Positions 3,001 to 12,000 of a stretch of DNA of 64,000 bases are shown one piece after another. Source of the stretch: an uncultured Acidobacteriota bacterium (GTDB lineage: Bacteria; Acidobacteriota; Polarisedimenticolia; J045); contig CAVPCQ010000038.1 in NCBI GenBank assembly GCA_963702425.1, forward strand, positions 4,992-68,991. The letters are read 5' to 3'. Made by a program: the position numbers. Each line of letters begins with the position of its first letter. Position 1 is the first letter of the stretch.

Positions 3001-6000
3001 CCGCACGCGCTTCGCCGTCGACGCGCTGAACATCCCCGACCCCTGGATCCGTCCCTGCGACGTGGCCCGGGACGAAGACATCGACCGGCTCTTCGAGGCC
3101 TACGCAAAGGATTTTCCGCGGCTCGACTTCGTCGTCCACTCGGTCGCCTTCGCCGACCGCGAGTACCTGCAGCCCGGCAAGTTCATCGAGACCCCGCGGG
3201 CCTCGTTCCTGATGGCGCTGGACATCTCGGTCTACTCGCTGATCGCCGTCGCGCGGCGCGCGCGGCCGCTCCTGGCCGCGGCCGGCGGCGGCTCGATCAC
3301 GACGATGAGCCACTACGGCGGCGACAAGGTCTTCCCGGGCTACAACGCGATGGGCGCCTGCAAGGCGGCGCTCGAGGCCAGCGTCCGCTACCTGGCCGAG
3401 GAGCTGGGCGCGGAGAAGATCCGCGTCAACGCGATCTCCGGCGGGGCGTTCAAGACCCTCGCGGCGTCGGGGATCGGCGGGCTCAAGTCGATGCTCGCCG
3501 AGTCCGAGCGCCGTTCCCCGCTGCGGCGCGGTGTCGAGGGGGTCGACGTCGGCGGGACGGCGGTCTACCTGGCCTCGGAGCTCTCCTCCGGAGTCACCGG
3601 CGAGACGATCTTCGTCGACTGCGGGATGAACATCCTCGGCGCCTGAACCTCGGGCGCAGTCGGGGGACGGCGGCAGGATGGTCCCGACCCAAGCGGTCCT
3701 GGCGTGGCTCCACCGCACCTTCGCGCTGCGCCGCGGGGAGGGCCGCCGCGCCCTGCTGCTGACCGTCTACCTGGGCGTCGTGATCGCCTCGTACCTGATC
3801 CTGAAAGCGGTTCGCGACGCGCTCTTCATCGCCGCCTTCAGCGCGATGAAGCTGCCCTACGTCATCTTCGGCATCGCGCTCCTGGTGGGCGTGTTCGTCG
3901 ACGTCTACATCAGGATCTCGCGCCGCGTCCCGGCGGCGCGGCTGATCACCTGGACGCTGGCCCTGTTCATCTCGAATCTCCTGGCGTTCTGGGTCCTGGC
4001 GCGGATGGGCTTCACCTGGCTCTTTCCGCTGCTCTATATCTGGGTCGGCTTCTTCGGGGTCGCGGCGCCGGTCCAGGTCTGGACGCTGGCCAACGAGGTC
4101 TTCACGACGCGCGAGGCGAAGCGCGTCTTCGGCATCGTCGGCGGCGGCGGGATCACGGGGGCGATCATCGGCGGCGCGATCGCCAGCGTGCTGGCGATCG
4201 AGATCGGGACCGAGCAGCTGCTGCTGGTGGTCGCGCTGCTGCTGGTGGCCTGCATCGTCCTGGTGCACTGGATCGCGCGCTACCGGTTGCCGGTGCTGCG
4301 CGAGCGGCGGGATGAGGTCCTCCCGTGGAACCTGGCGATCAGCGCGCGGCGGGTGCGGAGTTCCCCGCACCTGCGGGTGCTGGCGGCGCTGGTCTTCGTC
4401 GGCGCGCTGGCCACGACGATCGTCGATTTTCAGTTCAAGGCGGCGGCCGGCGGTGCGGGATTCACCCGCGACGAGCTGACGGCGTTCTTCGCGGCGACCC
4501 TGTCGGCGATGTCGCTGGTCGGCCTCGTCGTCCAGCTCGGGATCGTCCGGCCCGTGCTCCGGTCGCTCGGGTTGGGGGCGGCGATCCTGGTCCTGCCGTT
4601 CTCGCTGCTGCTCGGCGAGTCGACGCTGATCGTGCTGGGCAGCCTGTGGGCCGCGGTCTTCATGAAGGCCAGCGACGGCGCGTTCAAGCACTCGATCGAC
4701 CGCTCGAGCAAGGAGCTGGCCTACCTGCCGGTCCCGGTCGAGATCAAGTTCCAGGTCAAGTCGGCGATCGACATGGTGCTCGATCGGCTGGGGGACGCGA
4801 CGGGCGGCCTGGTCCTGCTCGTGCTCGCGACCTGGCTCGGCTTCTCGATCGTCACGATCGGCTGGGTCAACCTTGCTCTGCTCGGGGCCTGGCTGTTGCT
4901 GGCGCGCCGGCTGCGGCAGTCGTACGTCGACGAGCTGGCGACCTCGATCGGGGCCAAGAGCGCGCGCGCCAGCTACGAGTTGGACGCCTCGCTGATCGAC
5001 GCCGACGCGCGCGCCGGGCTGCGGCGCGCGCTGACCGCCGCCGACCCGCAGACGATCGGGATCGCGCTCGAGCTGGCGTCGCTCTCCCCCGGCAGCGACC
5101 TCGAGCCGGAACTGGCCCAGCTCGCGCAGCACGAGAGCCCGGAGGTCCGCGCGCGCGTGCTGGGTGTGTTCCTCGCACCGGGCGGGTCCGGGCTGCCGCC
5201 CGAGCTGCTCGACCGGCTCGAGGAGGCCGACCACGACCTGCTCGCCAAGGGGCTCGACCTGGTGCTGGCGACGACGCCCGAAGAGCGCCGCGAGCGAGCC
5301 ACGGCGCTGCTCGGCAAGCGTCGGCCCGACACGCAGGGCGTGATGCTGGCGCTGCTGGTGCGGCGGCTCGGCCCCGACTTCGCGCCGGTCGCGGCGCACG
5401 TGCTGGACGGGATGATCGCGGCCGACGCGCCGGCCTCGCTGCGTCGCGCCGCGGCCTCGGCGCTGGGGATGCTCCCCGCCGACTCGGCCCTGGCCGGCAA
5501 GCTCGACGCGCTGCTCGACGACCCCGAAACGGAGGTGCGGGCCCAGGCGGCAGAGAGCGCGGGGCGCCTCGGTCGCAGCGACCTGGTCCCGCGCCTGGTC
5601 GAGCTGCTCGGCTCCCACCGCACGCGACCGCCGGCGCACCGGGCGCTGGTGGCGCTCGGGGGGGAAGCGATCCCGGCTCTCGGGGCAGCCCTCGCCCGGC
5701 AGCGGGGCACCCCCGCTTCGGGCTCGTCGCCGGAGTCGGCGGCCCTGCGGCACGTCCCGGCGGTGCTGCGCGCGATCGGCTCCTCGGGCGCGATCGCGCT
5801 GCTGGTCGACAGCCTCGGCCACCCCGACGAGTTCGTGCGCGAGGCCTCGATCCACGCCGTCGAGCGGTTGCGCGAGCGCGACCCGGAGAACCTGCTGGCG
5901 GGCCCGGAGCTGGTCGATCCCGAGATTGCCGCCGACGGCGAGCGCCACGCCTGGATCCTCGGCCACTACGCGGCAGCCGCGGCCGAGACCGGCCCGGTGG

Positions 6001-9000: not shown

Positions 9001-12000
9001 GACCCCGCCCAGGGAGCGCGAACAGGCGCTGGCCCGCTTCATGCGGTCCGGCGGCGGCGCGGAGACCGGCCCCGAGGGGGTGCTGCCGCGGTTCAACGAG
9101 CTCTACCCGCCCGGGTACTTCGAGCGACAGAAGGCCTTCTCGGCGAGCGGCGCCTACGGCCGCTGGCTGCTCTCGAAGTCCTTCATCCTCGTGATCGACG
9201 ACGTCGCGTACGTGCACGGCGGCCTGCCGCCGAGCGTGGCCTCGGAGGGCGCGGAGGCACTCAACCGGTCGCTGATGCAGGAGATCCAGGCCTACATCAA
9301 GGCGCGCGAGACGCTGATCGAGGCCGGTCTGCTCGACCCGGAGACGAGCTTCGTCGAGTCGTTCCAGCGGGTCGGGCAGAAGGTGGAAGAGGCCGAGGCC
9401 AAGGGGCAGGCGCTGCCGGAGGCGTCTGCGAAGGCGGCCGAGACCCTGCTGGCGAGCGCGGGCGCCTACGCCTTCAGCAATGAGAACCCGTTCTGGTACC
9501 GCGGCACGTCGCTCAACCCCGAGCCGCAGGAACTGCCGGCCTTCGAGGCGGCGCTGGCGAAGCTGGGCGCGAAGTCGGTGGTCGTCGGACACACCACCAC
9601 CCCCGGCGGGCGGATCACCTCGCGCTTCGGCGGGCGCCTGCTGCGCGCGGACACGGGGATGCTGAGCGAGGTCTACCGCGGCCGCGGCGCGGCGGTCGTG
9701 GCGGAGGGCGGGACGCGGCGGACGCTCTACCCCGGCGACCCGGCGGACACCAAGCCCGTTCCCGAGACGAAGGAGGAGCCGGGTCCGATCGTCGCCCAGG
9801 GGATGCCTGACGCAGCGCTCGAGACCTTCCTGAAGACCGCCGACGTGGTCAAGATCGAGGACATCGGCTCCGGCATCACCCGGCCCAAGCGGCTGTCGCT
9901 GCAGAAGGACGGCGTTTCACGGCGCGCGGCGTTCAAGTACGTCGACGAGACGTTCGACTCGACGGTGCGCATCGCCGGCCGCCTGGAGATGCAGTTCAAC
10001 GACCGTTACATCTACGACGTCGCGGCCTACCGGCTCGACCGGCTGCTCGAGATGGACATGGTGCCGGTCGCGGTCGAGCGGACGGTCGACGGTACCGCGG
10101 GGGCGGTGCAGGACTGGATCGAGAACGCGATCGACGAGGGGCGGCGTGTGACCGAGAAGCTCGAGCCCTATGACGCCGAGTCCTTCAAGCGCCAGACCCA
10201 GGTGATGCGCGTCTTCGACGCGCTGATCTACAACGCGGACCGCAACCAGGGGAACATCCTCTACACCCCCGGGGACTGGAAGCTGCACCTGATCGACCAC
10301 ACGCGCGCGTTCCGGCTCGGCACGGGGCGCCCGCCGGGCCTCGTCGACGTGCCACTCGTGATCGAGCCCGAGCTGCGCGTGCGGCTCGCGGCACTGAACG
10401 AGGAGCAGTTGAAGTCGGCCCTCGGTGGCCTGCTGAGCAACGCGCAGATCGGCGCGATCCTGAAGCGCCGCGACAAGCTGCTGGCGGAGACGGTGCCGAA
10501 GGCGGCGCCCAAGGCACCGGCCAGCGCCGCGCCGGCCGTGAAGCGCGCCTCGTAGCCGGCGTCCCGAGCCGGCCCGCGCGGCCGCCGCGGGTCCAGGAGG
10601 CTGTCCGTGAGCGACCGCGCACGCCCGTGGCGACGGTTGGCGCTGAACACGCTCCTCGTGGTCGCGTCGGTGGCCATCGCGCTCGGGCTTGTCGACCTCC
10701 TGCTGATCGTCACGCACACCCCTGTCCACGGACCGATCTGGGAGGCTCAGGGGCTCTTCCGCCTCGATCGGGAGCTGATCTACTCGCTGGTCCCCGGTAA
10801 GAAACGGGTCTGGCGCACCGACGAGTTCGCGGAGCAGGCCTCCATCAACCGGGAGGGGCTGCGGGGCGCCGAGCTTCGGGAACGACGGGGGATCGACTCG
10901 CGCATCATCGTGACCGGCGACTCCGTCGTCTTCGGCCACGGCGTCGGCGACGGAGAGGCCTTTCCGAAGCAGCTCGAGGCGATCTTCGCGTCCGAGGGCC
11001 GCAACGTCGAGGTGCTCAACGCGGGCGTGAAAGGCTACGGCACCGACCAGTCGTTCAAGTCCTTCGATCGTCGCCTGCAGGCCCTGAAACCGGATGTCCT
11101 GGTGTTCGCCGTCAACACCAACGACGTGGCCGACAACATCCGGCAACCGCTCTATACCGTGCAGGACGGCCGGCTTCGCGAGCTCGACGCAACGCGCAAC
11201 CCGTTCTACCGGGTCGTCTGGCTCGATTCGCACCTCCCGGGGGCCGTCCGCCGCACCGACCTGTACGGGCGGCTCGTCACCCGGCTGCTCCGCGCCGACT
11301 GGGATCGCGCGCTTCCCGACAGCGACCCCGATCGGCTCAAGGCGTGGTCCCGGGAGAAGGTCGTGCTGGAGATTGAGTCGCTTCACGACCGGTCCCGGTC
11401 GGCCGGCTTCCGGCTCGTCGTGCTGGGGCTCCCCAGCACGGCGCCCAACGCGTTCCGATGGCTGCGGTCGAGCCTGCCCGAGGGCGTCGATTTCCTCGAC
11501 GCGAACGAGGTCGAAGCCTGGGCGAGCGAACCGTCCCGGTGGTTCCTGAACGACCGGACTCACCTCACCGTGGCCGGCAACGAGCGGCTCGCCCAGCGGC
11601 TCTACGCCCACCTGCTCGACACGGAGAGCCCCGCCACCGCACCATAGGACAGCCGTCGCGTCGAATGCGTGGTGGCGAGGCCGGGCCAACTCCGGGGTGG
11701 ACATGACGGTGCACGACTCGCCAGCCTTCATCCTCGGGATCTCGGCCTTCTACCACGATTCCGCCGCCTGTCTCGTGCAGGATGGCCGGATCGTCGCTGC
11801 GGCCCAGGAAGAACGCTTCACGCGCCGGAAGCACGACGCGGGATTCCCGCGGCACGCGATCGACTACTGCCTGCGCGAGGCGCGCATCGGCCCGGACCGG
11901 CTGACCGCGGTCGCCTTCTACGACAAGCCGTGGATCAAGTTCGAGCGGCTGCTCGAAACCTACCTCGCGTTCGCGCCCGGCCGGTCGTGTCCTCCTTCCT

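Follow-up and report, generated by a model that had tools for sequence, protein, structure and literature searches.

A recurrent module of TLC-family transporter, PPP-type phosphatase and kinase-fold domain inside an Acidobacteriota four-gene block: a candidate extracytoplasmic phosphorylation switch

What brings a nucleotide-transporter-like protein, a two-component pair and a phosphatase-kinase fusion together in one tightly packed gene block? The question is raised by a 64,000-nucleotide stretch of DNA (the window; ∼72% G+C) from an uncultured Acidobacteriota bacterium, whose nearest relatives are Acidobacteriota metagenome-assembled genomes (MAGs). Four genes are at issue (Table 1): a TLC/NTT-family transporter with a regulatory tail (gene 1), a response regulator (gene 2), a histidine kinase (gene 3) and a fusion of phosphatase and kinase-fold domain (gene 4). 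A reading of the DNA without database searches (the sequence-only reading) had taken them for an uncharacterised operon in which nucleotide sensing or transport is coupled to phosphorelay and to an exported phospho-enzyme. The parts of that interpretation stand, but the partnership that is conserved, which it had not singled out, is that of transporter, phosphatase and kinase-like domain; the four-gene operon is a lineage-specific elaboration.

The core was delimited from the kinase side. An alignment of the kinase-fold domain (here KINL) was scanned against one genome per species and 549 encoding stretches were confirmed; in the neighbourhoods of the best 80 of these 549, six-frame open reading frames (ORFs) were searched with hidden Markov models built for this analysis. 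These 80 loci are spread over many Acidobacteriota classes, Gammaproteobacteria (Steroidobacteraceae, Halieaceae, Thioalkalivibrio and Lysobacterales), a delta-proteobacterium and Latescibacterota. Neighbours, defined as lying within 8 kb, were counted only where each flank extends for 5 kb or more, which leaves 42 loci. [quoted passage not shown] The chance expectation for such co-occurrence is estimated to be below 1% for a gene family this rare. Phosphatase and KINL are either fused or split, and the transporter is found on either side and on either strand. From these counts and this freedom of arrangement, the conserved core is identified as TLC transporter, PPP phosphatase and KINL, with HEAT repeats, cNBD and the response regulator and histidine kinase as optional regulatory layers. 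That this module is real and conserved appears very highly probable. Other recurrently linked families are lineage-specific, none of them at more than 13 of the ∼80 loci.

The KINL family comprises 1,255 representatives of 50%-identity clusters (E ≤ 1e-30) and has only sub-threshold Pfam matches, to HipA_2, to PI3_PI4_kinase (PF00454; 17.4–19.6 bits against a gathering score of 27.1, the window protein scoring 19.6) and to Fam20C (PF06702; 14.4 bits against a gathering score of 26.8, with weak matches in 13 of 25 members). The first two of these are also the sub-threshold matches of the C-terminal part of gene 4, and HipA-like kinases give KINL neither a profile match over the cut-off nor its closest fold. 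When the family profile is searched against PDB sequences, the best matches are FAM20A, FAM20B, FAM20C and Caenorhabditis elegans Fam20 (E 3e-10 to 1e-5), spanning the αC region together with the catalytic and metal loops, and PI4KII follows at ∼1e-2. An AlphaFold2 model built from 83 sequences is very confident (pLDDT 94.4, pTM 0.91). The fold is that of the PI4KII/FAM20 group, which agrees with the PI4K-like C-terminus proposed for gene 4 at the outset; a specific FAM20 orthology is not indicated, because the fold match ties with PI4KIIα.

The catalytic residues are conserved across the family: of 215 copies, all keep the metal-binding Asp, 212 the catalytic Asp and 211 the Asn, and the αC position is E or D in 193 and the β3 position K or R in 190. 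The window copy reads K, D, D, N, D, the residue set of an active phosphotransferase, and from this pattern KINL is probably catalytically active. Two copies are present at six loci: at L030, L045, L068 and L069 a phosphatase-fused and a standalone KINL flank the transporter, and at L078 and L084 the modules are tandemly duplicated. A pseudokinase/kinase pair, by analogy with FAM20A/FAM20C, was considered for these loci and rejected, as both copies keep every catalytic residue. In a family representative of 671 amino acids (P0241), two kinase-like domains stand in tandem within one protein.

The phosphatase half of gene 4 matches Metallophos at 49.9 bits, and its GDxHG, GDxxDRG and GNHE motifs, with its similarity to solved members, place it in the PPP family (Shewanella-like). 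Among solved structures it comes closest to the cold-active protein-tyrosine phosphatase of Shewanella (2z72 and 1v73; E 6e-32), against a weak ∼5e-3 for ApaH. The motifs are common to gene 4 and the Shewanella-like enzymes; what sets the gene 4-type domain apart is its kinase partner, either fused or encoded alongside, and its link to a transporter. Gene 4 carries a single hydrophobic segment, N-terminal, with a basic n-region and an AXA-type site, so that the export signal read earlier is upheld. Within an unbiased representative set, an N-terminal hydrophobic core is present in 93% of fused and 86% of standalone family members, compared with 3–5% of internal windows of the same proteins. 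Judged by these signals, it is highly probable that phosphatase and kinase are both exported.

Gene 1 is a member of the TLC family (PF03219, 68 bits against a cut-off of 21) and matches HEAT_2 (48.9 bits) and cNMP_binding, both over cut-off. Its K/R-rich N-terminus, hydrophobic segments and K/R-rich central loop, assessed by hydropathy and a positive-inside heuristic, predict that the HEAT-cNBD tail is cytoplasmic. The cNBD keeps an intact GE...RSA phosphate-binding cassette ('GEALG...EPRSARAVA' in the translation). The architecture, detected in 186 homologues, is no novelty by itself. Major, Embley & Williams (2017, PMC5381601) describe NTT-HEAT fusions as monophyletic and widespread in bacteria and leave their function unknown; the cNBD is either fused, which gives the three domains of gene 1, or encoded by the gene immediately downstream. 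The passages of the paper that were consulted mention no phosphatase or kinase neighbours, whereas a large subset is linked here to exported enzymes, and the linked transporters carry Asp at the position of the ATP-site Lys.

A possible function follows the arrangement of the three core parts: an inner-membrane TLC/NTT transporter, a Sec-exported PPP phosphatase of the Shewanella-like class and a Sec-exported kinase of PI4KII/FAM20 fold. Kinase and phosphatase would act as an opposing pair on an extracytoplasmic substrate, whether protein, lipid or glycan, and the TLC partner would take the co-substrate or product, a nucleotide, through the inner membrane, most likely with phosphate donor moving out and spent nucleotide coming back in exchange. 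In the window's clade, transport could be controlled from the cytoplasm by cyclic nucleotide monophosphate (cNMP) through the fused HEAT-cNBD tail, and further by the Cys-rich PAS histidine kinase and the single-domain response regulator, for which the HEAT platform may offer a protein-interaction surface. The window would then hold one elaborated copy of a widespread envelope module that works as a phosphorylation switch outside the cytoplasm and has a nucleotide traffic of its own. This model is preferred because an opposing kinase and phosphatase appear to be co-exported and are tied genetically to a member of the only dedicated nucleotide-exchanger family, and its prospects are put a little short of even. 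The more specific idea that the transporter supplies the phosphate donor is doubtful.

Much of that doubt arises from the transporter itself, and most of the observations gathered in this and the following paragraph weigh against the switch model. The TLC domain of gene 1 aligns to the solved AtNTT1 structure 9j3j (E 6.5e-14), the chain numbering of which equals precursor numbering minus 84, a shift that brings all four key residues onto the right residue types. AtNTT1 requires K155, E245, E385 and K527. The K527E substitution abolishes ATP binding and spares ADP binding, and E245 serves translocation (PMC3306366). Gene 1 has Gly at the E245 position and Asp at the E385 and K527 positions, the last of these inside a well-aligned K-x-A-I-D...L-G-x-x-G-G motif; the region of K155 aligns poorly. 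The four charged residues of canonical ATP/ADP exchangers are thus not found together in gene 1, and TIGR00769, the NCBIfam model for NTP/NDP exchangers, scores it at 39 bits against a cut-off of 387. Asp occupies the K527 position in 55 of 59 kinase-linked transporters, and at the E245 position every one of the 59 has Gly or Ser and none has Glu. In three TLC proteins without a kinase neighbour the corresponding residues are F, T or I and E, E or A, respectively, so that the kinase-linked transporters form a distinct class and the Asp signature itself tracks kinase linkage. Because Asp replaces the ATP-site Lys527 of AtNTT1, the linked proteins are, by sequence, not canonical ATP/ADP exchangers, and the designation 'ATP:ADP-antiporter-like' was overstated. 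Residue conservation does not support ATP export or simple ATP/ADP exchange; the substrate is possibly something different, or a metal-nucleotide complex. Gene 1 does share with the canonical translocases (AtNTT1, 9j3j) the Pfam family, the overall alignment and ∼12 transmembrane segments, and it differs from them at the three positions named and in that the hosts here are free-living environmental bacteria. The canonical ATP/ADP translocases include Rickettsia Tlc1 and Chlamydia Npt1.

Other points are independent of the transporter residues. Porins would let small nucleotides escape from the periplasm, and a supply of ATP would be costly for that reason. At the β3 position of KINL, Lys is replaced by Arg in 67 of 215 copies and by another residue in ∼11%. 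About 17% of the fully flanked KINL loci have no TLC gene within 8 kb, and two NTT-HEAT proteins at 28–29% identity to gene 1, from Calditrichae and Myxococcaceae (L090, L091), have neither partner beside them. Signal peptides were scored by a hydropathy heuristic and not by a dedicated predictor. Finally, what the sequences show is how the genes associate, the fold of the kinase, that its catalytic residues are conserved and that export signals are present; the enzymatic activities, the direction and cargo of transport and the regulatory roles are all inferred from them.

Among the alternatives, the closest holds that the kinase phosphorylates an envelope lipid or glycan, as a PI4KII- or FAM20B-like enzyme would, and not protein, the transporter moving either the donor or a phosphorylated small-molecule product. 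It is a variant of the switch model more than an exclusive rival to it, and protein substrates are the more usual case where the partner phosphatase is of PPP type; taken as a separate explanation it seems unlikely.

A function in scavenging has to be weighed next. Here the exported phosphatase would break down external organophosphates or nucleotides, the TLC protein would import nucleotides or the products, and an accessory binding role would fall to the kinase-like domain. Characterised NTTs do import nucleotides (PMC5381601), and the phosphatase domain has some similarity to ApaH-type dinucleotide hydrolases. However, that similarity is far weaker than the one to protein-tyrosine phosphatase, a kinase with a fully conserved catalytic core fused to a phosphatase would be left unexplained, and a pair of enzymes working in opposition would be typical of a regulatory switch and not of scavenging. 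Near the module, neither phosphate-regulon nor nucleosidase genes recur. Scavenging is considered improbable.

The interpretation from which the analysis started, that a transporter of ATP:ADP type gated by cNMP makes up a single obligatory four-gene signalling operon together with a phosphorelay and a secreted phospho-enzyme, fares no better. In its favour are the tight spacing, the translational coupling and the identical gene order in relatives at 69–92% identity. In those relatives the whole neighbourhood is shared as well, and because it is kept entire, synteny among them says little. More distant relatives separate the parts. At L006 (gene 1 homologue at 43%), in an unrelated neighbourhood, a full-length gene 4 homologue (49%) begins in overlap with the stop of the transporter, and response regulator and histidine kinase are absent. 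They are absent also at L005 (49%), where the transporter is followed after 2 nucleotides by a 290-amino-acid protein whose match to gene 4 is confined to the C-terminal domain (50% identity, E 2e-67). L007 (41%) retains specific orthologues of both regulators, with its gene 4 homologue on the opposite strand; this speaks for the larger operon, but L005 and L006, which lack the pair, are nearer to the window than L007. At L089 (37%) an NTT-HEAT protein without cNBD has the phosphatase on one side and the kinase domain on the other, each encoded by a gene of its own. A 286-amino-acid ORF beside the transporter at L008 was examined as a possible gene 4 relative and rejected as unrelated. Synteny of the four-gene block thus holds for near relatives only, the regulators being missing from most module loci, and the ATP-site residues are not conserved. 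Such an operon is quite unlikely. That co-localisation is incidental, through hitch-hiking or the shared ancestry of closely related genomes, is suggested by the entire neighbourhood shared among the nearest relatives, but the association outlasts full turnover of the flanks, fusion and fission, inversion and change of phylum, and the kinase-side sampling effectively refutes it, leaving it a very remote chance.

Within the window, the four ORFs, their coordinates and their junctions (a gap of 22 nucleotides, then overlaps of 4 as GTGA and 4 as ATGA) are as first read, and the same GTGA/ATGA overlaps are present in independent gene calls of relatives. A good Shine-Dalgarno sequence stands at the 22-nucleotide junction of genes 1 and 2. 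Each domain call (TLC, HEAT, cNMP-binding, receiver, PAS/histidine kinase, metallophosphatase) is borne out by the Pfam scan. The tight coupling is real, but the block is not a delimited unit: a co-directional FabI-like gene stops 31 nucleotides upstream of gene 1, a co-directional GDSL-like gene begins 51 nucleotides downstream of gene 4, and the site scan gave nothing resembling a promoter or terminator within the four genes or at their flanks, the only terminator-like or sigma-70-like site in window positions 1–16000 being at 15927. Because the flanking genes are close and co-directional and no such site separates them, the transcription unit may be longer than four genes. No Rfam families were found for the block. 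The FabI-like, ACAD and methyltransferase genes that lie upstream, like the GDSL and carbamoyltransferase genes on the downstream side, were considered as parts of the module and rejected, as they are missing at distant loci.

Table 1. Features of the four-gene block and the adjoining insertion (window coordinates; aa, amino acids).
Feature	Position	Strand	Description
Gene 1	3678..6893	+	TLC/NTT-family transporter with HEAT repeats and C-terminal cyclic-nucleotide-binding domain; 1071 aa
Membrane (TLC) domain	3735..4937	+	∼12 hydrophobic segments; both termini predicted cytoplasmic (hydropathy, K/R distribution)
HEAT-repeat region	5025..6497	+	cytoplasmic (predicted); HEAT_2 in 3 stretches, plus HEAT
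cNMP-binding domain	6582..6830	+	PF00027, 59 bits, aa 969-1051
Gene 2	6916..7380	+	single-domain response regulator, receiver only
Gene 3	7377..8561	+	GTG start; soluble histidine kinase with N-terminal PAS-like domain
Cys-rich N-terminus of gene 3	7377-7740	+	C8, then C47-x10-C58-x2-C61
Gene 4	8558..10555	+	fusion of PPP-type phosphatase and kinase-fold domain, predicted exported; 665 aa
Signal peptide	8558..8650	+	RR n-region, hydrophobic core aa 8-26, site between ASRA and GA
PPP-family (Shewanella-like) metallophosphatase domain	8678..9757	+	motifs GDVHG, GDLVDRG, GNHE
KINL	9800..10507	+	kinase-fold domain of PI4KII/FAM20/CtkA group; without Pfam family of its own
GDSL-like and carbamoyltransferase genes	10607-13543	+	two-gene insertion in the window's lineage
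Carbamoyltransferase gene	11697-13543	+	reading frame split by a frameshift near 11980-12000

The two-component genes have the expected residues. Gene 2 matches Response_reg at 87.7 bits, and the acidic pocket, phospho-acceptor Asp, Thr and Lys are visible in its sequence; gene 3 matches HisKA and HATPase_c, with a weak PAS_4, and its H-box 'HEIHTPL' is invariant among orthologues. Orthologues with identities as low as 43% all keep four cysteines of its PAS-like domain (C8, C47, C58 and C61), a pattern that suggests a metal, Fe-S or redox sensor. Outside the near relatives of the window, only L007 has the pair alongside the module, and the pair is regarded as a clade-specific add-on.

Downstream of gene 4, the GDSL-like hydrolase, which has an N-terminal transmembrane segment, and the carbamoyltransferase are missing in L001, L002 and L003, the closest syntenic relatives, from the interval that separates gene 4 from the PliI-like and SASA genes. 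The first ∼100 amino acids of the carbamoyltransferase ('ILGISAFYHDSAA...') are in another frame and the Pfam match of the remainder begins at profile position 124; the split points to a pseudogene or else to an error of MAG assembly.

The transporter and its surroundings vary between lineages. In Gammaproteobacteria the transporter is a plain TLC protein of ∼460 amino acids, and in Steroidobacteraceae a Crp-type cNMP regulator gene lies divergently upstream of the fusion gene, so that the cNMP link recurs in another form. The TLC partner in the cultured isolate Thioalkalivibrio sp. XN8 (L077 8596-10356, minus strand) has a C-terminal He_PIG Ig-like domain and no HEAT repeats. A Na+/H+ exchanger fused to a cNMP-binding domain is encoded near the module at nine loci (L071 4662-7259, minus strand, and eight others) and is a second cNMP-linked membrane transporter in the module neighbourhood. 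At seven TLC-less gammaproteobacterial loci (L017, L031, L036, L040, L059, L064 and L081) the KINL gene is followed by one for an OmpA-family outer-membrane protein with thrombospondin type 3 repeats (for example L064 1114-2433), which could be an envelope substrate or partner; this ∼440-amino-acid ORF was considered as a substitute transporter and rejected on its OmpA-family identity.

Several known kinases resemble KINL in part. Compared with FAM20A, FAM20B, FAM20C and C. elegans FAMK-1, the bacterial domain is a minimal core of ∼230 amino acids, and it shares with them an extracytosolic signal sequence, as far as the heuristic count of N-terminal cores (86–93%) indicates. Type II phosphatidylinositol 4-kinases act on the cytosolic face, unlike the predicted exported KINL family, which also scores below the PI3_PI4_kinase gathering score. 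The secreted Helicobacter pylori kinase CtkA has 12% sequence identity to KINL, acts in host cells and is not known to have a transporter or phosphatase partner. No description of the module or of bacterial exported FAM20-like kinases was found in the literature searched, coverage of which was incomplete, so that this absence is not proof; a Fam20 review does not discuss bacterial homologues. Within that literature the three-part module appears undescribed, and the earlier statement that no characterised system has the composition of the four-gene block likewise holds.

In its widest form the switch model would give many environmental Gram-negative bacteria a dedicated extracytoplasmic phosphorylation system, in which a FAM20/PI4KII-fold kinase and a PPP phosphatase are fuelled by cNMP-gated export of a nucleotide donor through the TLC protein. 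The donor might leave as a metal complex, given the Lys-to-Asp switch, and the spent nucleotide be retrieved; the module would then stand as the prokaryotic counterpart, and perhaps even as a relative, of the eukaryotic secretory-pathway kinase system. This extension is rather unlikely as it stands. The KINL family adjoins FAM20 and PI4KII in fold space and bears on the origin of the secretory-pathway kinases. The periplasm is generally regarded as being without ATP, which is why known envelope modifications draw on other donors; if the link between an exported, intact kinase and a nucleotide-transporter family is functional, it would challenge this view. For the NTT-HEAT proteins of free-living bacteria, the role of which was left open in 2017 in the work cited above, the association offers a concrete and testable function, and with Thioalkalivibrio sp. 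XN8 as a cultured carrier experiments are feasible. Bacteria may thus have regulated phosphorylation outside the cytoplasm.

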